Virus record (IMG/VR): IMGVR_UViG_2974723051_000001
Location: 1 to 64,000 of that record
DNA: 64,000 bases
From: a virus
Lineage: Duplodnaviria; Caudoviricetes
Direction: 5' to 3' (one strand)
The translations under genes and the position numbers were made by a program. Below are positions 10 to 48,735 of this stretch, piece by piece; positions within the stretch are counted from its first letter, which is position 1, and every line of letters begins with the position of its first letter. Below the pieces are notes generated by a model. The model worked only from the letters and a program-made list of their open reading frames with translations, was not told the DNA's origin and made no database searches.

Positions 10-696
10 TTAATCATGTTCAGCATCCTCTATGTTTGAAGGAATGATATTTGAATGTGCGATACTCTTCGTATCTAGTTGTCCCTCTATTACTTTCTCA
101 CGTTGCTTGTTAGAAAGATTACTTACTGCTGCTGCTAGGTCAGCAATCACACCACTATCATTAGCAGTTAAATCAACAGTAAGCTTAGCTGACTCAGGTG
201 CTTTGAGATGGTTCATCAAAGAATCAGCAGCCTTCTGTACTACATATTCATTCTGGCTATTCAGTAGATTAGCCTGTGCTGCAATAGCCTTATGTCGAAC
301 ACTTGCATACATAATATGGTCAGGAATAAGTGTCTGTTCATAAATCAGAGTAACCAACTTATTCTTGTTATATGTACTAGCATACGCTGACATATCCTTA
401 GTGGATACATTCCTTGCAGCCATGGCCTGACATTTAGCCGGAAATACCTTCTGATATGCTCCCATGCTACTCATACCCATAGCTTTGTAGGATACAAACA
501 TCACAGCATTGAAGTAGTCATCTAATTTGAATCGCCCCTCTTGTAGAACTTTCGAATATGTAATTATATTATTCGTATAGACCTCAGCCATTTCAGGGTC
601 AGCAACCATTGCATTAACCTTGTCTACAAATTGCTGGTCAATCTTACTTCTATGCTGTTTAGGTATAGATTCTTTAAGTTCAACTACGGATAACAT
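10..696 (-). CDS. Conserved N4-like protein (N4 gp69-like, terminase-adjacent; possible small terminase subunit)
   Basis: 228 aa; recalled resemblance to the N4-like gp69 family (YSKVLQEGRFKLDDYFNAVMFVSYK, AADSLMNHLKAPE); late-strand orientation. Confidence 0.7.
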   Translation of the reverse strand: MLSVVELKESIPKQHRSKIDQQFVDKVNAMVADPEMAEVYTNNIITYSKVLQEGRFKLDDYFNAVMFVSYKAMGMSSMGAYQKVFPAKCQAMAARNVSTKDMSAYASTYNKNKLVTLIYEQTLIPDHIMYASVRHKAIAAQANLLNSQNEYVVQKAADSLMNHLKAPESAKLTVDLTANDSGVIADLAAAVSNLSNKQREKVIEGQLDTKSIAHSNIIPSNIEDAEHD

Positions 697-736
697 ATTT
701 AGCCTTTAGGGTTGTTATAGATATAAGGATATTACT

Positions 737-925
737 ATGGCTCAAATCAAAATCAAACCAAGCAAGGTAGGAACACTACGTGCAATAGCTCGCAGAGAGG
801 GTGCAATCAACGATGAAGGTAAAATCTCTGTATCTTGGATGAGAAAGAAAATGTCCTCTCCAAGGACTTCCGCAGCGGTTAAGAAAAAGCTTAACTTCGC
901 TCTAAATGCAAGGAAATGGAAATGA
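737..925 (+). CDS. Small basic protein, possibly nucleic-acid binding
   Basis: 62 aa, K/R-rich, AAGGA RBS; C-terminus KKKLNFALNARKWK. Confidence 0.7.
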   Translation: MAQIKIKPSKVGTLRAIARREGAINDEGKISVSWMRKKMSSPRTSAAVKKKLNFALNARKWK

Positions 926-3900
926 AACTAATACCACCATACTCTTTTCTACCCGCCCATACCGGGTACAACTTCAAAGGGAGGGTACGTTACTTTGCTA
1001 ATCACCCACACTTACGTTGATATTAAGGATTATCGCAGAGGTCAGACTGAAGTTTGGATAAATTACAAGGGAATGGAAGTTATGCTCCATTCCCCTAAAA
1101 ATGCACTATTCAACCTAGTGTCTTCCGAATGGGATAATGATATATCTAATGGAAAACTAACCAAATATAAGGATAGACCTGAAATTTAACAAGGAATCAC
1201 GCATGTTACTAATAAATGGGAGAATGACACTTAAAGACCCTAAGCGATTAATGGGGTATTACCTAAATTATAGAAATAACTACTACATTGTGCTCGAAGG
1301 TACTGAAATTCTGTATTGTGCTAAGCCAATCAGAGGCAAATATCCTGTACCTCCTAGAGCAACTTGGGAAATATTTGGACAACAAAGGATGGATAAGAAA
1401 TTGCTAACAAGGATGCTAACATTACTAGGATTACTCCTAATATCTTTCAAAGTTTGCTCAGCAGACTTAATTCTAGGTGGGTTCAGCTACCACATTGCAG
1501 ATAACAACTACTGTTATGCTGGTGAATGTAGACCCCTCAATGAAACCAACAATGCTATTGGTATCCAAGACAGGGATATCAGACTCACTCTCTACAAAAA
1601 TAGCTATTACAAAGATAGCTTTGCTTTGATGTGGGTTCCCTCAGTACCTATAAACCAAGATATGGAACTAGGTCTAAGACTAGGTGCTACTACCGGTTAC
1701 CAATACACACCTGTAGGTTTGAAATATACACCAATAGTTGGAATAGAAATGAAGTTTGACTTCCATTACTTCAAATTGGTTCCTGCTTTCCAAGCACCTA
1801 GTGTGCTATCCATACACATGGAGATACCTCTACCATGACACTTATTAAACCGTTTAGAAAACTTAATCCAAATAATAGTAAAACTAGAAGTCTACGTTAT
1901 GTGGAAATGACTAATGCTTACTTGATTATACAAGATAAGAAATCTATGGCCTTTCGTTATGAAACTAATCAAATCACAAACAGTATGTAGTAGTCCTGAA
2001 ACGGCTATATACACCTCTTTCCCCTTGGCAAAGCTTCACAAAGGTGTTTACTCAATGTGGACTCCCAACTTAGGAATAGATATACACTATGCACCTGATA
2101 CAAACTAAATACGTAAACGCCAATCAGGATATCTTATGGTTTGAATACCTCGATTATTCTTTCGATGGATGGATAGAGGAAAATGTTGACCTCGATAAGT
2201 ATAGAGGTAGCTATTCAATTGGTACACATGACAACTATACAAACATACCGGTAAGACGCCCATGAAACTAGTACCCAACTACAAATCATTTGGTGCTCTT
2301 ACCAATATCTGGTTTTCCTATTGGCCTGAAATCTATGAGTTCGATTCTGACGGTATAAATGAATCTGCATTCCGCAGTGATGACTGGAGTTGGGCTGAGG
2401 ATTTCTTTGAATTAACTCCAATAGAGAGGTCAGACAATGCACCTATTAACTAGCTATATACAAACCAGTGCAAACAGGAATAGTAGTTACCCTTACACAG
2501 CTATTATCTACCGTGAGCAAGTGTACTTTAACTATGACCGCATTAAGCGTGTAGGTAATAAGTGCGGTACAACTTGGGATAAATACTGGAAACCATATGA
2601 CCTTAATACAAACAGCAAAGGGAATACCATTTAGACCATTGAATGCGATTGGTTTGGTAGCTTGCCCTAGTCAATACTATTACATGCTGGGGACTACCAC
2701 AGCAGATTGGATATTTACTTATGACCTTAATACAAAACTACCAAGAGTCTGATACATCTTGGTACTTCCCATATAAAGACATAATCTATACAGAATATGG
2801 TGCAGGCTTAGAAGTAGCTGGATGTTCCAGTTTAGGCTTCTACAAGTTAAGAACTATGTACCGACTAACACCAATGGAGAAACCATGAAGATATATAGAA
2901 TGCGTGTTCATCATCAACATGATGTATATGTCTGTCAGATAAAACCAGATGCTGTATTCGACTATAAGGTTTCAATGAGGAAAGTAAACTATACACATAG
3001 ACCTCATGTAGCCGGTTGGATTGAACAATGCCTTAATAGACCAGAGATATACACGGATGCACTTAACCCAAACAAGAACCCACATAAACCAATCTAACTA
3101 CATTGCCTTTCAATACCTACCTAAACAATTTGCAGTACTAGAAATCTCTCTTGAGATACGTCAGATATATCGCCATGCAAATGCCAATTGGGGTGCACTC
3201 TACTATGATGCAGTCTACATTCCTACGAGGAGAACCAATGCGCCTAAGTAAAACATACTTCGACCCTGAAGCTTCAGATGGTTCCCTTATGTGGGAGTTT
3301 GCTGAAAGCGAATTCTACTTGCTAGAAGGAACAGTTAGAAAGAGATGTTCTATAGCTGAATGGTTCCATGAAGAAGTAGCTAGTGAGGAATTAATACCTT
3401 ATGCAACTAATAAGAACAGATACGTATACAGCTAAACCTAACCAAGAGTTTATACCAGTAAATCTAATTAGATGGGATAGTAGCTATGTTCGTTGGACAT
3501 TAACGGAAGGATTAGAGTTTATATATGAAGTTAGTTAAAACTGAAGTTGATTATGAGCTAGCACTCAACTCAGCAATGGAATTCAGTCATCGAGGCTTTA
3601 CATACACCTTAGATGATGAATGTACCCACTGTTTCTATACACCCTACAAATTATACCTAATTTACTATGAAGCTGATTGAAACAATTATGCGAAGGGCTA
3701 CGAACCCTTACACCGAACCATTGAATAGATTTATGATGAATCGTCCTGAGTTCTCCCTACGTATCAACCATAAGAGAGTATTATTCTACTATGGAATTAA
3801 GAAGAACAGTAATTAACTCTTACAATTCTACCCTACCATTACACTTCAAATGTATCACACCACATGTAATAGGTGGTTACTGTTTAGATGTTCGTGAAAC

Positions 3901-5134
3901 TCCCGGACTAGTACAAAGGGTGGTGATACGTGCGATTAATTAAACTTAATCTTAAAGGTGACTGTTATAGGTCTAACATCTTAAGACCCCATAAGTACTT
4001 TAACCATGAATATGCATTTATACATAACAATAAATGGAGCCAAATCTACTATGACCCTAATCACAATACATCTAGATTTAAAGGATAGATTTGAAGCACA
4101 TTCACCACTAAGACAGCACACAAGAATAACTACAGATTATGTCCTGTACTTAGGTAGACAAGGGAGGATTAGATTCAAATATGAACCTAATAGAAACCAT
4201 TAACTTTAAATCGGATTTCGATGTAACTGTACCTCTAAAACCAGTTGCAGATATGGTATTCAACTATACAGCTAGATATAACTGTAAGAGAGTTTATATA
4301 AGGTATGAAACTAATAAAGATATTCCAAGAAGTTCATAGACTTGTTGATGCCTATGACCCTTGTCCACTAGAGCAACACTTCAGAACTAGTCCTAACCAT
4401 GATGACTATCACATGTTCCAGTTATGGACACCTAACACTTACCTTGGATTCAACTATGAAACTACTTAACACTAAGCCTATGGGTATTGCGACTCCACGT
4501 AACAAGTTAAGACATCACACTAGTTACCGTAACAGGTTTGTACTTATCCATAACTCAAGAGCATTCCATATAGACTATGAAACTAATTAAAACAAACGTA
4601 CACACAGATACCGCCCGTGAATACAGACCAGTAAGACTATGTAAGTACAGTCTGTATACCAATACATATGTGACATGGACTAAACACACAAGAGTAGAAG
4701 TTATCTATGAAGCTAATTAAAACTACTATGATGCAGTACCAAGGGTTTACTGTGTATGAGGATGGTTTAGAGATGGCACGTACTGCTGCACAGTTAGATG
4801 TAGTTATCGAACCAAGTAAAAGTATAAACATAAGGGTAGCTTTTATATATGAGACTAATTAAGACATCTACCTATCCGGTAGTTGTGAGAGGACTGAACC
4901 AAGATAAAGGACTAACTCGCTTTGGGGAAGTAGGAAATACGTACACTATGCGGATAAATAGTATGAGAGTAGTAGTAGATTATGCAAGTAGTACCGGCAG
5001 TAACATCTAAGTATAAGAGTACAACTATTAAGTTTATCTATATGGATGTAATAGTATTTATGGACTTTGAAGAAGGGTATGCATCTATGAGTAACTTTAA
5101 CACTTACTACGTAAGAACCATTAAACTAAGATAG
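922..5134 (+). repeat. Micro-ORF array A: about 26 overlapping short ORFs, most starting M-x-L-[ILV]-x-T
   Basis: Starts read at 922, 995, 1203, 1835, 1959, 2089, 2262, 2437, 2597, 2721, 2885, 3057, 3238, 3401, 3525, 3667, 3791, 3930, 4051, 4181, 4305, 4456, 4577, 4707, 4849, 4982; nearly every start overlaps the previous ORF. Confidence 0.85.
1203..1838 (+). CDS. PagP-like outer-membrane beta-barrel protein (probable internal start at 1389 or 1413) in frame with an upstream micro-ORF
   Basis: Signal peptide MLTLLGLLLISFKVCSA, then GGFSYH...NETNNAIG...LYKNSYYKDS...LGLRLGATTGY, matching the H / (D,N)S layout of PagP-like barrels. Confidence 0.55.
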   Translation: MLLINGRMTLKDPKRLMGYYLNYRNNYYIVLEGTEILYCAKPIRGKYPVPPRATWEIFGQQRMDKKLLTRMLTLLGLLLISFKVCSADLILGGFSYHIADNNYCYAGECRPLNETNNAIGIQDRDIRLTLYKNSYYKDSFALMWVPSVPINQDMELGLRLGATTGYQYTPVGLKYTPIVGIEMKFDFHYFKLVPAFQAPSVLSIHMEIPLP

Positions 5135-5244
5135 TCGGCCCATTAGGGAAATATCTAATTTTAGTAGACATGCAGTACTTACAGGTTTTGAGCGAATAAA
5201 TAGAACATACCCCCCCATCTTTCTCTACTCAGCTATACGTACAG

Positions 5245-5265
5245 ATGCTCCGCATAACTCACGGA
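5245..5265 (+). promoter_or_regulatory. vRNAP (early) hairpin promoter
   Basis: ATGC-TCC-GCAT; template-strand C-GGA-G triloop hairpin as in N4 early promoters; GGA follows. Confidence 0.8.
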
Positions 5266-5301
5266 TATCCAACCACATCACTAATCAACGAGGATTCTCA
5301 C

Positions 5302-5523
5302 ATGAAAGAACTACTAGCAGCACTAACTCTAACTATGTCTACTCTATTCAACGTGTTCACTACTCTACTTGAATGCATCGGTCTACTATCAGCATCAGCT
5401 AAGAATGTATCTCACGTAGTGGAAGATGCATCTAATACATTCCGTATGGAAGAGAAGCTACTTAACGCTGATAAGATTAAGAAACTTAAAGAAGACCTAC
5501 GCAAAAAGGACATCGAACTATAA
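5302..5523 (+). CDS. Early hypothetical protein
   Basis: GAGGA RBS then ATG at 5302, directly after the promoter and followed by a terminator. Confidence 0.75.
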   Translation: MKELLAALTLTMSTLFNVFTTLLECIGLLSASAKNVSHVVEDASNTFRMEEKLLNADKIKKLKEDLRKKDIEL

Positions 5524-5550
5524 GTCACCTTCGGGTGGCTTTACTCTTTT
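5523..5550 (+). terminator. Rho-independent terminator
   Basis: AGTCACC-TTCG-GGTGGCT plus T-rich tail. Confidence 0.7.
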
Positions 5551-5873
5551 ACACATTACACAGACACAACACACTAGATAGTTACTCTTAGTTTAAGTTT
5601 AACTAATCACTATCCTTCGGATAGTTTAACGAACTAATAAACTTGGAGATGTAATGCAACTAATACATACACCTAGAATAGCTGAGGTTAAGTATGAGCT
5701 TAGTTATCTAAATGGGTACTATGTGCATAACTCTTACCGTAAGCAATTACTTTAACTCTATATAGGAGATAGATAGAACTAGAGGTAAAAGCAGGTTAAT
5801 TGTGAGTATAGTTTGTGGTTTCGATAAGCTAAGTCAATCTGTTGTAAAACTATAGATAACCTAAAGGTTATCC

Positions 5874-5890
5874 ATTACTCCGTAATAGGA
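5874..5890 (+). promoter_or_regulatory. Probable vRNAP hairpin promoter
   Basis: ATTAC-TCC-GTAAT upstream of the ORF at 5912. Confidence 0.55.
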
Positions 5891-5911
5891 ATAGATAACA
5901 GGAGATTACTT

Positions 5912-6130
5912 ATGACACACTTAACTGATGAAATATTTGATACAGCTAAAACTTACTCTAACTCTCATCCAGATGGTCAACCTATGCTCGAAGAACTTAA
6001 ACAGTGCATAGCTGATGGTTGGAGTATGTGCATGTACATTGACTATCTATCTCAATACTTTACTTACAACAGTATCCAACCAATCATTGAACCAATATGG
6101 GATATGGAACTAACAGGAGCAAACTCATGA
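5912..6130 (+). CDS. Early hypothetical protein
   Basis: 72 aa, AGGAG RBS. Confidence 0.7.
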   Translation: MTHLTDEIFDTAKTYSNSHPDGQPMLEELKQCIADGWSMCMYIDYLSQYFTYNSIQPIIEPIWDMELTGANS

Positions 6131-6372
6131 AACACATATTAATACTACTACTTCTATTATCACCACTAGCACAAGCTAAGACATATAAATATGGTGTTGC
6201 ATGTCATTGGGATACAGGAATCAAAGTGTACTTCACAAATGAAATAGCAGGACTAAGTACTACATCTACTGTGTACATCTTACGTGATGCAGTAGAGACA
6301 CATGATGACAGCAAGATAATCAAACAACTATATGTACCCGCATTTAAGTGCTACATAGAACAATTCAATTAA
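6127..6372 (+). CDS. Secreted/periplasmic hypothetical protein
   Basis: Signal peptide MKHILILLLLLSPLAQA; ATGA overlap. Confidence 0.7.
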   Translation: MKHILILLLLLSPLAQAKTYKYGVACHWDTGIKVYFTNEIAGLSTTSTVYILRDAVETHDDSKIIKQLYVPAFKCYIEQFN

Positions 6373-6400
6373 GACTACTTCGGTAGTCTTTTTTCTTTTC
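6371..6400 (+). terminator. Rho-independent terminator
   Basis: AAGACTAC-TTCG-GTAGTCTT plus T-tract. Confidence 0.85.
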
Positions 6401-6410
6401 AGGGGTACAC

Positions 6411-8277
6411 ATGAAATTATGCAAAGTAAAACTAATACCACATTTTGATGACATATATAGATTTCGTTATAACTCGAATGCTTACTGTCAATGTACAAGA
6501 CTAGGAATGTGGTAATGCTAATACTCAGAACACTTGATTCACATGGTACATGGTCATGGGAATATAACGATGAAGTCTACTGCTTTAACTATGTATATGG
6601 GGTGTGGTAATGACACTAATTAAACTCAGAAAGAATAGACGCAATAACTATGAGTTAGTCTCTGATATCTATTACTACGAGAATAATGGTTATGTCGGTT
6701 ATTACTTATACCATCCAGATAACGGGATATGGTGATGACACTATTTAAACTCAAACGTAATAAATACGATAACTACGAGATAATCTCAGATACTTATAAA
6801 TCTTCTGATAAGTTTTATGTAAGTTTTTATCTCTTTCATCCATTGAAAGGAATATGGTGATGCTACTCATTCAAACATATTACGAACTAAAACATACAGA
6901 TGCAGATGAGTATTGGTTCTCATATAAAACTTATGATTCTGTATTTATACAAAATAAGTGTATGTATCACTATCCAGAGTTAGCACCTGATGTAGCTACA
7001 TGGATATACAACAAAGAAATAATACCAACACCTAGGAGAACCAATGGAATTAATACATAACTATGATAGTGGTGCTAAGACTTATATATGGCTAAGCTAC
7101 CAAGATAGAAGTTACAACTTCCCAAATCCTAAGAATTACCCTCATTATTCTAAATACCAACTTAGTTATTATGAAAGCTGTAAGGTTACTTGGAATAATT
7201 GGGTAAATACTGGAATATTAACAGTCAAACAGAGGGAACCAAATGATATTACTTAATACATACGATAGTGCTTCATATGCACTTATATGGATTAAATATG
7301 GTGACATGGAATATTGTATGAAGAATACAGATTCTAATAGACGTGCTACTCCTTGTCCTTTAGCAGAGTCACGTGTAGGTGAACCTCTATGGTATAGCTG
7401 GTTACACACGGGTATTGAAGCTGGTGGAATAGTTATCAAACAGAGGCCAAATCAATGATAGTAGTTACAACATACCTAAGTAGTTACGACAAACTACATA
7501 AACCAAATGCTTGTGTACATTGGGATTACAAAGGTAAAGGTTATGGCTTATGTCATAACAGTAATACAAAATTATTCGTTAGTACTCCTACAATTAATAA
7601 ACTATTAAAGGATGATGAACATTATGCGCCTATTAAAGACATATTACATAATTCATAATCCAGCATCACTACGAGTACTAGTAGATGCTAATAACCTAGC
7701 TAATTTTTACTTTGGAGAAGATGCAGAAGGTTTTGTATATCACACAGGTGATAATCATGCTGTGTCTTATTTTCAATCATGCGTGCAGTGTGGTGAATAT
7801 AAAAGGAAACTAAGATGAAACTACTAGAAGTATATTTCACACCTGCTGGTACTGTGCGTGTTATTAAACTTGAACCTATGAATTACATGATAGGTAGATT
7901 AGGTTTACAACATTGGGGTAGTGCCAATTGGAAGAATTATAAGAGAGTAACTAAATGAAACTATATAGAATTAAATCTAATCATTGGGGATTCTTAGAAT
8001 TTATAACTGAGTCTAGTGTCTGGTGGAATAACTCAGATGGTAGCTTTGTGAAATACTCATAGGGGATAATATGTTACTTATGCCTATATTTGGTGCAGCG
8101 TATAAACCAGAGAACTATGTATTACACTTCCAGTATAAGTTTAAACAGTTCACTATTGATGTTGACTTTGCTGATAGGGAAATGACTAAGAAACATATAG
8201 AGATATATGCATCTAAACCAACTAGAAACTGGAACAGAGGTAAAGTAAGAATACCTAAAGGCTTTAAATATATTTAG
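6411..8277 (+). repeat. Micro-ORF array B (12 ORFs)
   Basis: Starts at 6411 MKLCKV, 6515 MLILRT, 6610 MTLIKL, 6735 MTLFKL, 6860 MLLIQTY, 7044 MELIHNY, 7243 MILLNTY, 7455 MIVVTTY, 7624 MRLLKTY, 7815 MKLLEVY, 7955 MKLYRI, 8071 MLLMPI. Confidence 0.85.
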
Positions 8278-8278
8278 T

Positions 8279-8302
8279 GTATTGCTCCGCAATACTCGTG
8301 GA
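8279..8302 (+). promoter_or_regulatory. vRNAP hairpin promoter
   Basis: GTATTGC-TCC-GCAATAC 7-bp stem; GGA at the same spacing as at 5245. Confidence 0.85.
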
Positions 8303-8325
8303 AATAAATTATTGGAGAAAATCTT

Positions 8326-8502
8326 ATGTTTACTGAAGCTATTCAACAAGCCAGAACAGCAGTACAGAAAGGCCTAACACATAAACAATATGTGGGAGAA
8401 GCCAAGCAATCTACACTAATTGAATATGTTGAAACCATCATACTTGATGAAGATGCATATAACCGCTTAACAACAATCATGAGTAAGGAGTATCTAAAAT
8501 GA
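8326..8502 (+). CDS. Early hypothetical protein
   Basis: GGAG RBS, MFTEAIQQ..., 58 aa after the promoter. Confidence 0.65.
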   Translation: MFTEAIQQARTAVQKGLTHKQYVGEAKQSTLIEYVETIILDEDAYNRLTTIMSKEYLK

Positions 8503-8795
8503 GAACTCTAGCATTACTTATCTTAAGCTTTCTAGCTGTAATTATCTGTCAAGAAGTACTACCTTACAACTACAGAAATATTGCCTCATTGCTTGCTGTA
8601 CTTGGGTTATTATGGGTATTTCACGATGTACTAGGTTATTGGGCTAAATTTGTATTTGCAGTAATAGTCCTGATACTTGGAGTACTGATATCAATAATCA
8701 CATTCCCATTCTACATGGCTGGCAGAGCATTCCAGAAAGGTCAAATAGCAGCAATCAAAGAAACACAACCAAAGGAAAATAAACATGATTTCTAA
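8499..8795 (+). CDS. Membrane protein
   Basis: Three hydrophobic segments; AAGGAG RBS. Confidence 0.75.
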   Translation: MRTLALLILSFLAVIICQEVLPYNYRNIASLLAVLGLLWVFHDVLGYWAKFVFAVIVLILGVLISIITFPFYMAGRAFQKGQIAAIKETQPKENKHDF

Positions 8796-8904
8796 GAAGG
8801 TAGAACGAGCACTACGACAAGCTAACGCATTAGGTGGACAGCGTGAACCAAAGAAAGAAATGAACCAATGTCCTTATAAGCGAAAGCATTCTAACTAATC
8901 AATT

Positions 8905-8934
8905 GAGCATCCATTTGGATGCTCTTTTTCTTTT
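8905..8934 (+). terminator. Rho-independent terminator
   Basis: GAGCATCC-ATTT-GGATGCTC plus T-tract. Confidence 0.85.
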
Positions 8935-8943
8935 GGAGGCTCT

Positions 8944-11180
8944 ATGAAGCTACTACAGGGCTACAAACCAGCTAATCTCACACATAGTCATCAACGTAGA
9001 TATGTGTTTGGTGACCGGACATATATACAAAGTACTAAACGTTCTAAGCGTTTAAAACCTTCTTTTTATAATGCTGCATCATTCTACGAAAGAATAATGG
9101 AGGGTAAGCACATTGCAGTTACTAGAGACGTATGAACGTGTTCAATTTACAAATGGTATAGCATTTGTAACCAACGTACAGGTATTCAAGTGCATTCCAG
9201 ATAAGGGTATTAAGGAATCCAAAGTACCTATCAATCACTTCTTACCATGGCTACGTACCGGTAAATACCGGAGGTTATCTAAATGCAATTAATATCAACA
9301 TTTGTATGGGAAGATGACATTCACGGAAGACCTAAACTTAACTATAGAAATGAGGGTGTTTACCTCAATAGTATAGTTGGTCTTAAGCGCAGAATGGGTG
9401 GTAGACCATACAAAATACATAGAACACGCAAATACCTTTCTAGAAGCTAACTCGAACCAAAACAGTAAAAAACTCTATATGTAGTCTAGTACCTAACTAG
9501 TATATTTGAGTGTATTTCTATGGTTTAAGTTAGTTTAATTTTTAATCAAATTGGATAAAATTTAATCATGAGACTAATAACTGGCTATAGATATAACGAA
9601 CGATTGACCATGTATAAGTACAAACCAACTGGCTACAAAGCTAGTGGATACATGCATGACATTGACCCACCATTTAACAGAGTATTTGGAAAGATACCTT
9701 TAAGCTACATGGATGGTGCTAAGAAGATGTGGAAGCGAGGTGTACGTGTATGCGACTAGTACGAATACAGTCATGGGATGAAGAGTACTACGATGAAGTA
9801 GAACAATACTCATATGGTATTGGCTCTTTGTGCTACCCAAATATACGTATGTTCACTATGAGACAAATAACGGCTAGAGGTATAACTACTGTTGTTCATA
9901 GTACCTGTGAAGAAGCATTGATTACCTTTATAGATGGTGAAGCATTACATCTAAGGAGTGCGATGTGAAAATAAGTTACACATATTGTAGTCCCTACTCA
10001 GGCTATAAAGGTGGAATGGTATTTGAGTATGGAATAGATGTTTATATACATACCTATTCTAATTGTACTACTAAGAAAGCTTATTGGACTGTAGATGAGT
10101 TTCGCAAACGGGTAGCCAAAGATACATGGATAAGGGTGGAGAGATATGCAGCTACTAGTAATGCGTAAGTTCCCTGAGTATCTATGTTTCCCTCAATCAC
10201 ATGTAACTGTATACAGGCATATGTTGGTAGGTGTTATACCTGAATTATTTGGGAGAAGTAATAACTACTGTTACCTACCAGTAATGAGTGAACTAATGGA
10301 ACATACGGGTAATAGTTATGGTTACAACGGTGGATACAATAAGTCTAAACCAGTTAATCCTAGGCATGATACATGGTTACTTAAACTTAAACGATGGTAT
10401 GCGGAGAGAGTGCAATGAGACTCATTAGAACATTTGGTTCCAAGCATACGTTACATAATGGTGGTTCATTATTTAGGTATCGATATAAATATTATTTATA
10501 TGGGGTTAGAAGTAATTTACGACATATTACTTGGTTAACATCAGAAGATACTGCTAACCGTTTCTCTAGGGGTGTATGGGTTTACTTCAGTAAGGAAACC
10601 AATGAAATTGTACAGCGTATTCAAGATTAAATATCAGTGGGGACATTACATATCTGCTGATATAGGTATATTTTACATCGGTATATATGGGATGCATCAT
10701 TCATCTATGTCCGATGAGACATTACATAACAAACAATTACGTGGTCATGTGAAGACCGTAAGGAGACTACAATATGAGAGTAATAAGCACATATGCCAAC
10801 CCAGAAGCGGTGAGGCTGTTTAACGCTGCATTCCGATATAAAGATACTGTGTATCGAGCTAGAACCAATGTACTACATGAATATGTAGATATAAGTGTAC
10901 CTAGATTCTTAGTAGCTGTTGAGTCAGGTAACTTAGTACCTTCAAAGGACAGAACCAAAAAACTGAGTATGTTCTTATGATGCTGCTGGCTACTTATAAC
11001 CATACGCTATATGAACGGCAGGGTAAGGTTTACCCTATATTTACCTATGATATGCCATACACCCTCGAAAAGATGTATGGGAGCTATGGGATTGCTAACT
11101 TGTCCCTTAGTCGTGATTTTATAGCCCGTGATATTAAGTATGGCAGGATGCTCCGCATCACACGTGGAACAACTATCTAA
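8944..11180 (+). repeat. Micro-ORF array C (11 ORFs)
   Basis: Starts at 8944 MKLLQGY, 9113 (TTG) MQLLETY, 9283 MQLISTF, 9568 MRLITGY, 9750 MRLVRI, 9965 MKISYTY, 10146 MQLLVM, 10415 MRLIRTF, 10602 MKLYSVF, 10774 MRVISTY, 10980 MLLATY. Confidence 0.85.
11147..11168 (+). promoter_or_regulatory. vRNAP hairpin promoter
   Basis: GATGC-TCC-GCATC then ACACGT-GGA; same architecture as 5245 and 8279. Confidence 0.85.
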
Positions 11181-11190
11181 GGAACCAATC

Positions 11191-11403
11191 ATGAGATACG
11201 TAATAACTACAATCCTAGCTCTATTACTTGCTGCTGCATCAGTAGTATTCGTTAAAGCGGTGAAAGCTGAGATGGCCGTAGTTCACGCTGAAGGGCAATG
11301 TATCGCCAGATACATTGAACAAGGCGTAGAACGGAAGGACATCAAAGTTACACGTGGAAGCTGTGAAGTAATTATATATGGTGAAGCAACTTTAAGGGAC
11401 TAG
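11191..11403 (+). CDS. Small membrane-anchored protein
   Basis: AAGGA RBS; N-terminal hydrophobic helix; C..R..GVERKDI..C motif. Confidence 0.7.
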   Translation: MRYVITTILALLLAAASVVFVKAVKAEMAVVHAEGQCIARYIEQGVERKDIKVTRGSCEVIIYGEATLRD

Positions 11404-11426
11404 CCTTCGGCTAGTTGGGTGAACCA

Positions 11427-11997
11427 ATGAGACTGTTAGTCACTTATTCAACTCGGGACTATCAAACTAAGTTAGGTGCAATCTGGTTTGAGCACAACTA
11501 TTGTGAAATGTTTAGGTCTAATCACAAGCCGTTAGCAATGGCACATAATCATACAGCTTACTTAGACCATGATATTACAGCCAGAAGTGTCTTACCTGTT
11601 AGGGAACTGAACTAATGCGATTAGTACTTACCAACTGTTATGGACCAGAATCTCTTCCGAATAATGAGGTATCTTTTGTGTTTACCTCTGTTGTGTACTG
11701 GACTTGGAAAGATGTTCCAATGTGTAAAGCACACATGGATGACATTACAGAACACATACGGGAAATTTTAGAAGACGAGTTAATACTCGTAAGGGAGTTA
11801 ACCCGATGCGATTAATACTTACTCGTTGTTATGACACCCATACCTTAGAAGATGGTGAAGTGTCATTTATATATCATTCAATTCTGCATTGGACTTGGTT
11901 AGATGCTCCAATACTAGCGAACCCTACTAGTCACTTTGTTACTGCTCACCTAAAATCAATAGTGGAAGGTGAATTACTACTTAGCAGAGAAATGTGA
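11427..11997 (+). repeat. Micro-ORF array D (3 ORFs)
   Basis: 11427 MRLLVTY, 11615 MRLVLT, 11806 MRLILT; the last two are clear paralogs. Confidence 0.85.
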
Positions 11998-12056
11998 CAT
12001 ATATCACAAAAAATTCTTCGGTCACTCAACCTCCGGAGCACTCTGATAGTTCATTT

Positions 12057-12079
12057 TGGACCTCCGGTCCATCCTTGGA
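12057..12079 (+). promoter_or_regulatory. vRNAP hairpin promoter upstream of the gp2-like/RNAP II cluster
   Basis: TGGACC-TCC-GGTCCA then TCCTT-GGA; same loop-to-GGA spacing. Confidence 0.75.
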
Positions 12080-12119
12080 ATAATCCAAACTTTAATTTAA
12101 TTTATTAGGAGACTCAATT

Positions 12120-12359
12120 ATGGGCATTCAAACTGAAACTCAAGCACCTGCAACTAACGCTAAAGAAACTAAGAAAGCTGAAGGTTGGCTAAACCTAGTC
12201 GTCAAAGCTAAAGACGGTAACTACCACTCAGTGAAGTGTTACATTCCTCTTGAATCAACTAACGATGTTCATCGTGCAATGTTGAACAAAGAAGATGGTA
12301 CTGAATTTGAAATCATCGGTACTGTGAAGCACAACGTCACAAAAGAAATCGAATTGTAA
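12120..12359 (+). CDS. ssDNA-binding RNAP II cofactor (N4 gp2/Drc-like)
   Basis: KKAEGWLNL...YIPLE resembles N4 gp2 (KAQYWLNI...GIPLD); lies upstream of RNAP1. Confidence 0.65.
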   Translation: MGIQTETQAPATNAKETKKAEGWLNLVVKAKDGNYHSVKCYIPLESTNDVHRAMLNKEDGTEFEIIGTVKHNVTKEIEL

Positions 12360-12364
12360 TACCA

Positions 12365-12396
12365 AGGCCAATCCGAAAGGGTTGGCCTCACTTTTT
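12365..12396 (+). terminator. Terminator
   Basis: AGGCCAATCC-GAAA-GGGTTGGCCT plus T-tract. Confidence 0.75.
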
Positions 12397-12408
12397 GGAG
12401 AGAGTGAA

Positions 12409-12675
12409 ATGGCAGTATCAAACGAATATCTACAACAGTTGCCTTATGCGACTGACTACGTGTTGAACCATCTGATTCCAGAGACAGGTTGCATCAAAAT
12501 GTCTACAGAATCTTTAATGGTGGCTCAGATAGCCTACAACACTATCGAAGATGAGGTTATGGATGACATAGCCAATAATGTTCCACCAATTCTGGTGGTA
12601 GCAAAAATCGCTAATGCTACTAAAAATGCGCAAGTAGTAGAAGCAACAGTAAAACAAATCATTGAAACAAAATAG
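12409..12675 (+). CDS. Hypothetical protein
   Basis: GGAG RBS, ATG at 12409. Confidence 0.65.
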   Translation: MAVSNEYLQQLPYATDYVLNHLIPETGCIKMSTESLMVAQIAYNTIEDEVMDDIANNVPPILVVAKIANATKNAQVVEATVKQIIETK

Positions 12676-12684
12676 GAAATCGAC

Positions 12685-12945
12685 ATGTCCGATACAAACG
12701 AAGCTACAAAAGTACTTATCCGTGTTAAACCAAAGAACAGTGCAGAAGAACTAGATGCAATGTTTACTGAGTTCGACGCAGCAGAAGAACTGAAAGACAA
12801 AACAATGCTGACAGTCCCATCTACTAACCGTCTGGTTACAGATGAAGGTCACCTATTGGTTGTGCTACCTAAGCGCTTGGACTTCGCAATTGCATACGAA
12901 CCAGATGAGTTCGTGGTACTTGCAGAGAACGCCGCTACTGCTTAA
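12685..12945 (+). CDS. Hypothetical protein
   Basis: 86 aa, AGGA RBS, followed by a terminator at 12956-12982. Confidence 0.7.
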   Translation: MSDTNEATKVLIRVKPKNSAEELDAMFTEFDAAEELKDKTMLTVPSTNRLVTDEGHLLVVLPKRLDFAIAYEPDEFVVLAENAATA

Positions 12946-12993
12946 TCAACTAAATGGGGAGCCTTGTGCTCCCCTATTTTTATTGAGGCGTGT

Positions 12994-13215
12994 ATGAAAC
13001 TTTGTAAAACATATCACGAACAAGACGAAATACCTACTGTCTGGTTCGAATGTGGAGGAGTTACCTCAGACTGTATGGATGCAGGTTTTTACGTAGAATT
13101 TCTACGAGATGGTACATCAGATTGGGTGACCGTATATGGTCCCACAATAAATGACCAAAGTAAGTTTGAACGTGTCACTAAAGACATAACCTTAACTACC
13201 TTAAGCAAAATATAG
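12994..13215 (+). CDS. Micro-ORF family member
   Basis: MKLCKTY...VWFECGG; GAGG RBS. Confidence 0.65.
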   Translation: MKLCKTYHEQDEIPTVWFECGGVTSDCMDAGFYVEFLRDGTSDWVTVYGPTINDQSKFERVTKDITLTTLSKI

Positions 13216-13224
13216 GACAAACCA

Positions 13225-14178
13225 ATGACCACTAGAATGTTACCACGTGATTACCAAATGATGATGGAAACCAAGTACTCCAAATCAAACATCCGTAAAT
13301 ATATCCTTGATGATATTCAAGAGTGTCAGGAACTTATGGATAAGCTCCATATATGTGCGCTACAAGTGGAGAAATGGTGTCAAGAAGACCACTATGAATC
13401 CAAGAAGGAATCACTAGCTGTATTGCTAGATGAAGAGTTCAGTATCAAAGACTTGTTGGTTGATATTATGAGTATGGTTCTGACTCAGAGCTATCGTATG
13501 GAAATCACAAGTGCAGTTGGTTTAGTAGCTGGCTTTATGCCATGGGAAGACTACCGAATCAAAATCAAACGTGCAGCAGAATTGCTATTCCATTTAGCTG
13601 CTTGTGACATCATCGATATGGCTCCAGCATTTATCAGTGAAACCAATACAGTACTAATTAGTAATAAGTACTCAATTGGTGGTGATACTGCTAAGTATAT
13701 TGAAATGAGTAAGTTCACACCACCAATGGTATGTGTACCTGAACCAGTAAAGTCTACTCGTGAATCCGGTTACTTAACTAAGCAACAGTTCGCAATACTG
13801 AAAGGTAAACACCAGCACAACTATCCAGTTAACCTTGCATCAATCAATAACTTTAACTCTATTCCATTATCACTAGACCATGAGTTCTTACGTATGGTTG
13901 AAGATGAGTTAGAGACTGATACAGAAACAGAAATGGAGATTGATAAACGACGTAAAGCTTTCGATAAGCTACGCCTAGAAACCTACGATGTATGTTTAGA
14001 TATCATTCGTGCTGGTAATGAGTTCTATGAGACTCACTTTTGGTGTGGACGAGGCAGAACATATACCCGTGGTTATCACATCAACTCTCAGGGTAACAGC
14101 TACCGTAAAGCTATGGTAAATTACGCAGAGGCGGCTGACATTAATGAGGATATTGAAGATTGGAAACAATACTTCTAA
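13225..14178 (+). CDS. RNA polymerase II subunit 1 (RNAP1, N4 gp15-like)
   Basis: PPMVCVP and RGRTYTRGYHINSQGNSYRKA (T7-family RGRxY...QG motif). Confidence 0.93.
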   Translation: MTTRMLPRDYQMMMETKYSKSNIRKYILDDIQECQELMDKLHICALQVEKWCQEDHYESKKESLAVLLDEEFSIKDLLVDIMSMVLTQSYRMEITSAVGLVAGFMPWEDYRIKIKRAAELLFHLAACDIIDMAPAFISETNTVLISNKYSIGGDTAKYIEMSKFTPPMVCVPEPVKSTRESGYLTKQQFAILKGKHQHNYPVNLASINNFNSIPLSLDHEFLRMVEDELETDTETEMEIDKRRKAFDKLRLETYDVCLDIIRAGNEFYETHFWCGRGRTYTRGYHINSQGNSYRKAMVNYAEAADINEDIEDWKQYF

Positions 14179-14783
14179 AGACCTGTTCTAAGTGTGGTGA
14201 GTATAAAGAACTCACCCACTATCATAAATATCCTAAAGGTGTTTATGGTGTGCGGGCAGAATGCAAGGGATGTATTACAGCTCGTAGGCATTCTAAAGAA
14301 GGCACAGTGAAACAAATGTATCTTAGGCAACGAGCTAGTTCTAAAAAGCGGGGCTATACACTACCTGATTATACAGAACAGGAACTTAAACAATGGTTAT
14401 ATGACCAACCTAAATTCCATGAAATGTATTCTATTTGGGTAGCATCAGGCTTTAAAAAAGAACTTAAACCTTCTGTAGACCGTCTAGATGATTATGCTCC
14501 TTATACCTTATCGGGAATCCAATTAGTGACTTTCCAAACCAATAGAGATAATTATGAGCAGCATCGTAAAGAAGGTAAGTCAACCAAAGGTCTAATGACA
14601 GCAGTAGATAAATTGACGTTAGATGGCGAAATGATTAAACGCTATCACTCTATATCAGCAGCTTCAAGAGACAATAATAATTTGCACATTGGTACAATTC
14701 AATCGGTGTGTGCAGGCAAAACTAAGACTTGTGGTGGATTTAAGTGGCGTTATTCACTTGAACCAAATAATAACAAACATTAA
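14160..14783 (+). CDS. Free-standing homing endonuclease (Zn finger, His-Me-like core, NUMOD1)
   Basis: CSKC/CKGC; KPSVDRLDDYAPYTLSGIQLVT; C-terminal YHSISAAS...IQSVC...GGFKWRY. Confidence 0.8.
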   Translation: METILLKTCSKCGEYKELTHYHKYPKGVYGVRAECKGCITARRHSKEGTVKQMYLRQRASSKKRGYTLPDYTEQELKQWLYDQPKFHEMYSIWVASGFKKELKPSVDRLDDYAPYTLSGIQLVTFQTNRDNYEQHRKEGKSTKGLMTAVDKLTLDGEMIKRYHSISAASRDNNNLHIGTIQSVCAGKTKTCGGFKWRYSLEPNNNKH

Positions 14784-14805
14784 CTAAAACTCAGCGAGAA
14801 ATACT

Positions 14806-15245
14806 ATGAAAACTTTTACACCAATCGAATACATCTGTATTCACATTGCTAACTCTTTCGGTAAAGACAAACTACTGTTCGAAGACAGAATAGAGTGGGT
14901 TAAGCAAAACGGTAAACAACTACGTAAACTAGCAGGTCAAGCAGATGACAAAGCACAGTATCTACGTGGTGTACTTGAACTTGAACGTATCCTTAATGGT
15001 CAGCGTACTACTAATATGCCAATTGGTTTAGATGCAACTGCATCTGGCCTACAGATTCTATCTGTACTATCTGGCTGTATGGTTACTGCTAGCCATGTAG
15101 GTCTAGTTGACCCTAATAAACGTTGTGATGCATATACAGCGTGTGGTGATACTATGAACTTCTACTTACCAGAAGATAAGCAGATTATCCTTACTGGTAC
15201 TCCAAAAGCAGGTCAATACACTCGTAAAGACCTAAAGCAACCCTT
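14806..15245 (+). CDS. RNA polymerase II subunit 2 (RNAP2), exon 1
   Basis: GKDKLLFEDRIEW; motif A GLDATASGLQ; start of motif B RKDLKQP. Confidence 0.92.
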
Positions 15246-16112
15246 AGAACATTGAGGCTTTATGCAGCGATGCATATCGAATAACTACGTGAATTCATGG
15301 GAACCCCTAACGTTAAGCCGAGGGCAATCATGAGCCAAGTTGACAAGAAGAATTGTAAAAGTAATACTTGCATAAAAATGTGCAAAGGAAACTTTTATGG
15401 AAACTTCACAGTGTAACAAATGTAATCAAATCAAGCCTGTATCTGAATTTCCTAAGATTACTCATAATCAATTTAGAAGTTCAAAAGGAAGTTCTGGAAT
15501 CTACTCATACTGTAAAGAATGCAGAAATGCTAAAGCAAGAGAGTGGCGAAAGAATAATCCTAATTACAAAGCATCAGGTAAATTAAGTAGTTACCCTAAA
15601 GAAGATAAACTATTGCTATCTGCAATACGCAGTAGAATATCTGATTGTAAGGGTAGAATACGTAGGGCTAATCCGGCCTGTGTAAACTTATTTGATTTGG
15701 ATACCGATTACATGTATCAACTCTTTAAACAACAAGAAGGTAAATGTGCATTATCAGGTGTTGATTTATCACTTACTAAGAACGATTTGAATGTCTTATC
15801 CATAGATAAAATCGAACCTAGCAAAGGGTACATCAAAGGTAATGTTCAATGGCTTTCATGGGCAACTAACCGAGCTAAAGGTGAAATGCCCCAACAAGAG
15901 TTTATTGAGTTATGTCAAAAGGTGCAGAGACTATCGAAAGCATAACCGAAAGGTGAAGAAGCGAGTAGAGTAGGTTCAAGTGAACCGAAGTGCGTAGCAT
16001 CTCTGACTAGAGATGATGATATAGTCCGACCTCATATGAAAGTATGAGCAGTTTGTAGGTAGAGAAACTATAAACGGGATTAGATGTAACGAATCTAATT
16101 TGAACATAAGTG
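15246..16112 (+). mobile_element. Group I intron in RNAP2
   Basis: P1 CCUU/GAGG with U.G at the 5' splice site; core CAGAGACTA (about 15925) and GATATAGTCC (about 16018); terminal G; splicing restores KQPFMTHFY. Confidence 0.88.
15397..15945 (+). CDS. Intron-encoded homing endonuclease (His-Me finger-like)
   Basis: CNKC/CKEC Zn finger; QEGKCALSG...SIDKIEPSKGYIKGNVQW...NRAKG. Confidence 0.85.
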   Translation: METSQCNKCNQIKPVSEFPKITHNQFRSSKGSSGIYSYCKECRNAKAREWRKNNPNYKASGKLSSYPKEDKLLLSAIRSRISDCKGRIRRANPACVNLFDLDTDYMYQLFKQQEGKCALSGVDLSLTKNDLNVLSIDKIEPSKGYIKGNVQWLSWATNRAKGEMPQQEFIELCQKVQRLSKA

Positions 16113-48706: not shown

Positions 48707-48735
48707 AGGGAGCCAGTTGGCTCCCTATTTTTATT
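48707..48735. terminator. Terminator between middle and late transcription units
   Basis: AGGGAGCC-AGTT-GGCTCCCT flanked by A and T tracts. Confidence 0.8.

Follow-up and report, generated by a model that had tools for sequence, protein, structure and literature searches.

How can thirteen small genes follow one another head to tail, each one starting inside the end of the one before and always in the same relative frame, and what keeps them in register? The question was raised by the interval 3401-5134 (+ strand) of a 64,000-nucleotide (nt) window of viral DNA, bases 1-64000 of a 74,325-base virus record (IMG/VR IMGVR_UViG_2974723051_000001). A preliminary description of this interval had seen in it a phase-locked array of repeated units and had speculated that the units were cassettes resembling single propeller blades, which might co-assemble or be joined by +1 frameshifting. 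Our analysis indicated that the array is probably a chain of separately translated, tandem paralogous early genes, in which the phase lock is inherited together with a conserved joint between neighbouring units; this joint would act as a point of recombination, and translation along the chain would be coupled.

Translation of the + strand revealed that 13 consecutive open reading frames (ORFs) of 44-54 codons filled 3401-5134. The starts that had been named (3401, 3525, 3667, 3791, 3930, which is a GTG, 4051, 4181, 4305, 4456, 4577, 4707, 4849 and 4982) were all present and each opened an ORF, those at 4051 and 4456 being internal ATGs within longer ORFs starting at 4006 and 4399. The spacings of 124, 142, 124, 139, 121, 130, 124, 151, 121, 130, 142 and 133 nt were exact, and all of them were 1 modulo 3. 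The 12 inter-unit overlaps measured 14, 14, 26, 14, 38, 23, 35, 14, 14, 14, 14 and 29 nt, exactly 14 nt at seven of the 12 junctions and 2 modulo 3 throughout. When the head gene at 3238-3435 was counted, the chain consisted of 14 head-to-tail overlapping genes (3238-5134). The same phase reported outside the array, at 1835/1959/2089 (124 and 130 nt) and 2597/2721 (124 nt), was also found, and the listed peptide ends (YETN, YEAN, YEVS, YEAD, YEPN, RVAFIY, RVEVIY, RVYIRY, RIRFKY, RVLFYY and RVVVDY) were all read in the translations. The window held at least 16 units of the family, 13 of them in the array. The features are given below, with lengths in amino acids (aa); bits are leave-one-out profile scores, phrog_11073 is a 45-position profile of a PHROG of unknown function, and pLDDT is the predicted local distance difference test of a structure model.

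3238-3435 (+): head gene, 65 aa, MRLSKTYF...; not a profile member; 35-nt overlap with unit 3401 and a 140-nt gap upstream.
3401-3538 (+): unit 1, 45 aa, MQLIRT...LEFIYEVS; phrog_11073 E 0.0016; 17.8 bits against a shuffle maximum of 3.8.
3525-3680 (+): unit 2, a weak member, 51 aa, MKLVKT...LIYYEAD; 7.3 bits, below the shuffle maximum of 10.4; its N- and C-terminal pieces still score.
3667-3816 (+): unit 3, 49 aa, MKLIET...RVLFYYGIKKNSN; 27.1 bits.
3791-3943 (+): unit 4, divergent, 50 aa, MELRRT...RVVIRAIN; -0.5 bits, so that the profile alone gives no support; phase and 14-nt overlap with the next unit kept.
3930-4088 (+): unit 5, 52 aa, GTG start, MRLIKL...QIYYDPN...; 21.7 bits.
4051-4203 (+): unit 6, 50 aa, MTLITI...RIRFKYEPNRNH; 14.4 bits.
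4181-4339 (+): unit 7, 52 aa, MNLIET...RVYIRYETNKDIPRSS; a variant about 90% identical, P0009, on other contigs.
4305-4469 (+): unit 8, 54 aa, MKLIKI...LGFNYETT; phrog_11073 E 1.6e-4.
4456-4590 (+): unit 9, 44 aa, MKLLNT...AFHIDYETN; 15.4 bits.
4576-4593 (+): joint, consensus copy, T-ATG-AAA-CTA-ATT-AAA-AC, read as Y-E-T-N-stop upstream and M-K-L-I-K-T downstream.
4577-4720 (+): unit 10, best representative of the family, 47 aa, MKLIKT...RVEVIYEAN; phrog_11073 E 6.4e-7; 39.2 bits; AlphaFold2 pLDDT 92.6.
4707-4862 (+): unit 11, 51 aa, MKLIKT...RVAFIYETN; AlphaFold2 pLDDT 69.6; 96% identical variant P0015.
4849-5010 (+): unit 12, 53 aa, MRLIKT...RVVVDYASSTGSNI; 14.4 bits.
4982-5134 (+): unit 13, a doubtful member and the last ORF of the chain, 50 aa, MQVVPA...; 0.8 bits; a relative from run contigs has unlike sequence over 4988-5149.
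1835-1990 and 1959-2108 (+): two further family units in the same phase; phrog_11073 E 0.0013 for 1959.
2597-2752 (+): possible further unit, weak, 0.3 bits; 2721-2888 follows in phase.

A period of about 130 base pairs and a conserved 18-nt motif on one strand only could also mean that the repeats are non-coding (iterons, promoters or an origin) and the ORFs accidental. However, ORFs of at least 44 codons covered 100% of the + strand in the array, and the 13 observed compared with a mean of 0.75 and a maximum of 4 in 500 dinucleotide-preserving shuffles, none of which reached 13. Codon-periodic conservation, a ratio of nonsynonymous to synonymous polymorphism (pN/pS) below 1 and a confident predicted fold, all given below, also spoke for coding. 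Moreover, the array had no match in Rfam, and sigma-70-like promoter matches were depleted in 600-13300 (19 observed vs 51.8 +/- 7.2 in shuffles) and did not recur at the joints. We give the non-coding reading practically no chance.

The element that recurs from unit to unit is the joint. The two-frame reading proposed for it, Y-E-T-N-stop in the upstream frame and M-K-L-I-K in the downstream frame, was confirmed, with the downstream start overlapping the Tyr-Glu codons in the same frame relation at all 12 array junctions. Allowing up to 3 mismatches, the 18-nt joint was matched 12 times in the window vs 0.25 expected, a count that none of 100 shuffles reached, and 10 of the 12 matches fell on the + strand in 1958-4865, within arrays. 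Conservation in the upstream frame was codon-periodic: of the 13 junctions, all had T at -6 and nine had it at -12, both being second positions in codons for hydrophobic residues, and 12 had the T of the Tyr codon at -1. In the downstream frame, positions +3 to +17 were strongly conserved, and ATG or GTG was kept at all 13 junctions. The upstream tail past Tyr-Glu varied in length and composition, which pointed to selection on the upstream strand as far as Tyr and on the downstream N-terminus; the variants YEAN, YEAD and YEVS resulted from synonymous or conservative changes in the downstream M-K-L-I. No promoter-like or terminator-like sites recurring at the joints were found.

The phase lock itself can be understood from this overlap. 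Each unit would encode a separate protein of about 45-54 aa with four β-strands, and its last conserved Tyr codon, T-AT, would share two bases with the next ATG, so that the distance from start to start is always 3n+1. The upstream frame would then continue for 11-35 bases to the first stop, the likely ancestral form being a TAA after 11 bases that gives the 14-nt overlap. Since only in-frame insertions and deletions (indels) within a unit would be tolerated, the phase lock would be inherited with the joint and not made anew at each junction. The junctions descend from a single ancestral one and cannot be counted as independent tests of the phase. Among 38 family units in 8 loci, 34 had a following gene that starts within them, beginning M-x-[LIVFM]-[LIVFM]; the two genes overlapped by 14 nt in 23 of these 34 and by 2 modulo 3 in 33, and a T preceded the ATG in 32. 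By this comparison of sequences, the dual-coding joint is a trait of the whole family.

An analysis of the unit proteins revealed one narrow family with the consensus MKLIKT - 8-11 aa - [FY]xPxxL - 6-9 aa - YxxW - 4 aa - hxFxYExN (alignments A1 and A4). In the leave-one-out test, 17 of the 22 aligned units outscored all 50 of their own shuffles. When pieces of the units were scored separately, all 100 shuffles were beaten in 12 of 22 cases by the six N-terminal residues, in 16 by the C-terminal strand and in only 8 by the middle on its own. Judged by these scores, the family signal is mainly at the unit ends and the middle is fast-changing. In 8 non-independent orthologous pairs from Pacinivirus phages, uncorrected pN/pS was lowest at the N-terminus (0.15) and higher in the middle (0.59) and at the C-terminus (0.52). 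Four of the eight units tested (4577, 4305, 1959 and 3401) matched phrog_11073 over their full length (E 6.4e-7 to 0.0016), and the other four (3525, 3667, 4707 and 4849) did not reach E 0.1; the entry stood in the search output without description, function or arrangement note. A profile search of 1.84 billion representatives returned only 18 proteins at E <= 0.001, all of 44-54 aa, and units absent from the profile training were recovered in contigs L006 (4) and L007 (7) and in the phages JA-1 (2), PhiImVa-1 (2) and BUCT194 (1). In BLAST, the window units 1835, 3930 and 4456 clustered with L006 and L007 units instead of with their neighbours, indicating that the paralogs are older than these phages and that the joint was kept nonetheless.

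The family was hard to find by other means. BLAST of the array and of unit 4577, at the DNA and protein levels, gave no match in 50,697 phage records because the family is too short and diverged, and profile searches were required. Pfam gave only stray rows (E >= 0.027), NCBIfam gave no relative, and the ESM Atlas gave no usable match. The variants P0009 and P0015 were known only from contigs of 469-1089 nt, and no close relative encoding P0015 was found in viral or metagenome contigs. A longer, fused homologue of 96-2000 aa was not found either, in a search that is weak evidence. Many of these small genes escape gene callers and annotators or are given a wrong start by them. In the record of JA-1 (L002), several small ORFs of the MKL type, two family units among them, were unannotated in 289-776 and 2491-2767.

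Which phage carries the array, and where does it lie in the genome? A 3095-aa ORF at 48734-58021 (-) showed about 61% identity to the virion RNA polymerases of the V. cholerae phages phi 1, JA-1, VCO139 and JSF3. An N4-like RNA polymerase gene (13225-14178; phrog_2166, E 1.6e-106) lay downstream of the array, and the ORF at 10-696 (-), upstream of it, was phrog_2109, annotated as "N4 gp69-like" in JSF3. By these sequence matches, the host of the array is an N4-like (Schitoviridae) vibriophage. The positions of the three genes place the array in a left-hand region that is read rightward and is bounded on one side by the end of the late genes and on the other by the genes for the phage RNA polymerase; we take this region to correspond to the early region of N4. 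The region before the RNA polymerase genes measured about 4.7 kb in JA-1 vs about 13 kb in the window phage, and much of the added length would be small genes of the array kind. The depletion of sigma-70-like sites would fit transcription by the phage's own polymerase. An entry named for Vibrio phage pVco-5 in BFVD was 100% identical to unit 4577; the announcement of the pVco-5 genome lists 125 ORFs, 116 of them hypothetical, and does not mention the array (PMC5764924). Term searches of PMC7650795 and PMC3670811 returned no passage mentioning paralogs, duplication or overlap. A description of the array was not found in the literature searched; supplementary files possibly hold gene tables.

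If the joint is a boundary of gene turnover, differences between close relatives should break there, and the gain and loss of units in relatives was found to do so in one clean case. It came from a comparison of L006, a 66,708-base contig with an array matching that of phi 1, and L007, with an array 100% identical to that of VCO139. A 257-nt indel between them comprised exactly two units, starting at ATGAAACTAATTAAAAC and ending just before the next-but-one identical ATGAAACTAATTAAAAC; it was bounded by identical 17-nt copies of the joint, and the 100 alignment columns flanking it on each side were 88-92% identical. Another indel, of 203 nt, was flanked by an imperfect direct repeat containing a gene start (ATGAAAyT), and the early regions of the two also differed by a 167-nt indel starting 2 nt before a unit ATG and by a 300-nt indel without a clear repeat. 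In five Pacinivirus genomes, the syntenic site, which directly follows a 62-aa gene homologous to window 737-925, held 5 units in VCO139, 5 in JA-1, 3 in phi 1, 3 in JSF3 and 2 in 12VC501. These counts and the L006/L007 indel bear out the earlier idea of a cassette array with a conserved joint and variable bodies. In a relative of the window phage, found in the run contigs X1/X2 (one sample, depth 2-5; 84-100% identity per piece, mostly 90-97%) and read over the covered parts of 1800-5300, 2966-3789 was swapped for about 170 nt containing the joint and one novel 148-nt unit, and the match resumed 1 nt before the ATG at 3791; unit 4982-5134 was also replaced there, with divergence from 5 nt after the ATG. 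Recombination between copies of the joint would thus lead to the gain, loss or replacement of whole units, and as a place of whole-unit turnover the joint is supported by the sequence comparison of relatives. The homologue of window 737-925 had an in-frame stop in L007 (...SVRCM*RKL...) and was intact in L006, L011 and L012.

The same features might, however, need nothing beyond descent and constraint on the proteins. Phase lock and joint would then be a passive result of tandem duplication and of purifying selection on the overlapping terminal strands, the joint would have no selected part in recombination or coupling, and the indels would lie simply where short homology exists. In keeping with such passive descent, the conservation of the joint was codon-periodic and mostly at the protein level, synonymous codons varied there, pN/pS was lowest at the N-terminus (0.15), and the paralogs were old, some window units grouping with those of other phages. 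It does not account well for the breakpoints at or beside gene starts, which recurred in three comparisons. We hold passive descent possible, with a clear but minor chance of being the whole explanation.

Among described systems, the joint comes closest to the promoter-early stem-loop (PeSL) cassette of T4-type phages (Arbiol et al. 2010, PMC2839356), whose repeated promoter-terminator motifs recombine with one another and thereby shuffle small early ORFs. A repeated motif that flanks small early ORFs and bounds indels in close relatives, the mark of a PeSL-like cassette, was found in the array joint. In both, a short conserved motif stands between many small early ORFs of a hyperplastic region, non-essential in the case of PeSL, and bounds insertions, deletions and replacements in close relatives. 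In contrast to the PeSL motif, which is intergenic and consists of a sigma-70 promoter and a terminator hairpin, the array motif lies within coding sequence, where a stop and a start overlap in two reading frames, and has no promoter or terminator. The phages also differ, since the array phage is N4-like and not of the T4 type, and the ORFs between the array motifs are mostly paralogs.

Tandem paralog expansions in host-interaction loci of viruses are also known as the "gene accordions" of poxviruses. The array resembles them as a small early gene family whose copy number varies in close relatives (2, 3, 3, 5 and 5, with at least 16 in the window). Whereas the accordion copies are recent and identical, the array units are old and highly diverged.

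The translation signals suggested how such a chain could be expressed. Within the chain, a canonical Shine-Dalgarno sequence (CGAGGAGA, 4 nt from the ATG) preceded the head gene 3238 alone. In 10 of the 13 units, the best Shine-Dalgarno-like run lay 10-14 nt from the ATG, as against 2 of the 26 long genes that have the element, and these runs (AGAGU, AGGGU or GGGAGGA) were the Arg/Gly-Val codons of the last strand. The start regions were 50% A at +3..+20 and less folded than the unit middles (-4.1 vs -6.4 kcal/mol; Mann-Whitney p 0.024). We propose that ribosomes enter the chain at the Shine-Dalgarno of the head gene; on reaching each stop, they would begin again at the A-rich, weakly folded AUG situated 11-35 nt upstream of it. 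A canonical signal at the head gene only is, in addition, not expected from passive descent. Translational coupling by termination-reinitiation is typical of overlapping genes of the ATGA/TAATG type. As in these, each gene of the array begins shortly ahead of the stop of its predecessor, and a well-placed Shine-Dalgarno is missing from most of the chain's genes; unlike their overlaps of 1 or 4 nt, those of the array are 14-38 nt, 2 modulo 3, and a family trait over 13 junctions and 8 loci.

The frame relation had also led to the suggestion that the units might be joined by +1 frameshifting. In its full form, this would be a polyprotein made by a programmed shift at each joint and folding as a multi-blade propeller. 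The downstream frame was indeed +1 relative to the upstream frame across 13 junctions, and a +1 shift inside any overlap would therefore join two units. Nevertheless, this part of the preliminary description was not supported. All 13 junctions kept an ATG or GTG, which a shift site does not need; the upstream stops fell at variable distances, 14-38 nt past the ATG, with no common slippery site; and the A-rich, weakly folded start regions were like those of initiation sites. When every in-frame TATG was read as four bases, many stops appeared, and only 3 of 10 such steps were at junctions. The units were also single or paired in other phages, and the fused homologue that a polyprotein family might include was not found, on the weak evidence of the search mentioned above. 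Frameshifting is very improbable as the way in which the units are expressed.

The structure of the units was predicted with AlphaFold2. The model of unit 4577, made with 22 aligned sequences, had a pLDDT of 92.6 and showed four strands (3-12, 19-23, 30-34 and 38-46). Unit 4707, the middle of which could not be aligned to the family, was modelled with a pLDDT of 69.6 and with four strands in the same order, so that a shared predicted fold was seen in both units; TM (template modelling) scores between the 4707 model and BFVD models of other units were 0.64-0.68, with non-significant E-values. The blades of beta-propellers, among them YVTN repeats and the closure ("velcro") blade, are about 45 aa long and consist of four antiparallel strands. 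The array unit is alike in its length of about 45 aa and its four predicted strands. In an exhaustive VIA-align search with the unit fold, propellers were prominent, most of the top 50 rows being, judged by their entries, beta-propellers; all Z scores were 4.7 or lower, rated as a common arrangement, and the aligned ranges spanned whole propellers. Such ranges would fit a closure blade with one N-terminal and three C-terminal strands; in that case, the long conserved strands 1 and 4 might pair, with the short variable hairpin of strands 2 and 3 beside them. The array unit differs from propeller blades in being a separate gene and in lacking a sequence match to propeller-repeat families of Pfam or NCBIfam, which none of 32 family members matched at E <= 10. 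Of the likeness to a YVTN-type blade that had been proposed, a weak resemblance of the predicted four-strand fold to a propeller blade, at Z <= 4.7, may remain, and membership of the YVTN family was not supported. A propeller closed by several repeats in one chain was also considered and rejected, as each unit has its own start and stop; the weak evidence of the missing 96-2000-aa homologue agreed.

The separate units might still act together. They would pair by the conserved strands at their two ends, as homo- or hetero-oligomers in the shape of a ring or an extended sheet, and so present combinatorial surfaces. A lone four-stranded sheet of 47 aa would have no core of its own, which makes a partner likely; the conserved parts were the two terminal strands, and the propellers that we take to fill most of the top VIA-align rows were spanned as by a closure blade. 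These structural rows were at the same time no better than a common arrangement, Foldseek against the PDB gave nothing at E < 1, and no fused homologue turned up, with the limit already given. Furthermore, other phages have only one or two units, so that a large hetero-oligomer is not required. We consider co-assembly of the modelled blades unlikely. Conserved terminal strands around a variable middle would suit a set of small binding proteins made early and directed at host takeover or anti-defence, which the position, size and variability of the genes would suggest as the most likely role.

Several results weigh against the chain of paralogous genes turning over at a recombining joint. The clean, exact indel between L006 and L007 was the only one of its kind, and the X1/X2 contigs, with their low depth and single sample, would by themselves point only weakly to replacement. 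Five of the 22 aligned units (window 3525, 3791, 4982 and 2597 and L003:2030-2173) failed the leave-one-out test. Synonymous codons at the joint were only mildly homogenised: for Leu (codon 3), CTA was used in 9 of 15 cases vs 28% genome-wide (p 0.009), and Lys was AAA in 4 and AAG in 3. With homogenisation so mild, recombination at the joint may be a by-product of conservation at the protein level and not a selected role. The proposed coupling by termination and restart along the chain is drawn from the anatomy of the genes, and a look for RNA runs containing the stretch listed none. As for the fold, confidence in the 4707 model was only moderate, Foldseek found no match in the PDB at the threshold given above, and a sequence-profile search of the PDB gave one row, with E 1.1. 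Taken together with the two-frame joint, the family profile and the unit counts in relatives, we still regard the chain of separately translated paralogs with an inherited joint as the probable explanation.

If it holds, whole units would be inserted, deleted or swapped in register at the joint. Lytic phages keep most of their uncharacterised genes for host takeover and anti-defence in their early regions, the turnover of which is poorly understood. The turnover boundary here would be a two-frame coding overlap that keeps the units in register, as opposed to the intergenic regulatory cassette of T4-type phages. It offers a testable model for the expansion of N4-like early regions from about 4.7 kb (JA-1) to about 13 kb. 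A compact β scaffold of about 47 aa, conserved at its ends and free to vary between them, would be of value for structural and binding studies, and a natural chain of 14 genes is suited to the study of long-range translational restart.

Does the joint extend beyond this family? A broader proposal would make it a dedicated cassette boundary of the whole early region, at once protein terminus, start, restart point and recombination site, by which any small early gene, those of unrelated M-x-L-[ILV] families included, could be exchanged, added or lost in register, and the four-strand units would pair into combinatorial surfaces against host defences; we rate this as decidedly unlikely. The M-x-L-[ILV] start also occurred in other families that share only the first 9 residues (hhalign probability 15%), which passive descent of one family would not explain. 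A single superfamily for all of the early genes was considered and dropped: the A4 family and group B (A5: 7044, 7243, 2089, 2262 and relatives) were aligned over those 9 residues only, and the claim of one superfamily is for that reason not made.

Several other features were observed in the early region. In 1835-12000 (+), about 38-43 small ORFs (40-90 aa) in series started with M-x-L-[ILV], often followed by x-T-Y, and they included families unlike the array units past the first 9 residues. The common start could come from a scaffold strand that they share, from what initiation requires or from use as a recombination joint. Further tandem pairs of small paralogs (+) were found at 6610/6735, 7044/7243 (phrog_21645) and 11615/11806, within 6610-6860, 7044-7458 and 11615-11997, respectively. 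A homologue of the PagP-like lipid A acyltransferase (1203-1838, +; phrog_3600, E 1.8e-49) lay among the small early genes. The 79-aa ORF at 12120-12359 (+) matched phrog_18082 strongly and a "toxin" PHROG weakly (E 6e-4), and the matching region of PhiImVa-1 carried a "plasmid maintenance system killer" gene. The RNA polymerase genes were split, with the N4-like RNA polymerase at 13225-14178 followed by an HNH/endonuclease VII-like ORF (14160-14783), an RNA polymerase piece (14806-15255; phrog_20599) and a further ORF (15397-15945), all on the + strand; this arrangement at 13225-15945 may be due to a homing-endonuclease insertion. The motif GCTCCGCANNACNCNNGGA was absent from the 11 related loci of other genomes that were searched. 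Finally, TGCTCCGCAnnACnCryGGA occurred in three copies (5246-5265, 8283-8302 and 11149-11168), all on the + strand at a spacing of about 3 kb, a number reached by 0 of 100 shuffles, and was absent from 11 related loci; the copies contain an inverted repeat, though not a perfect one, and may serve as early promoter hairpins or as signals of another kind.

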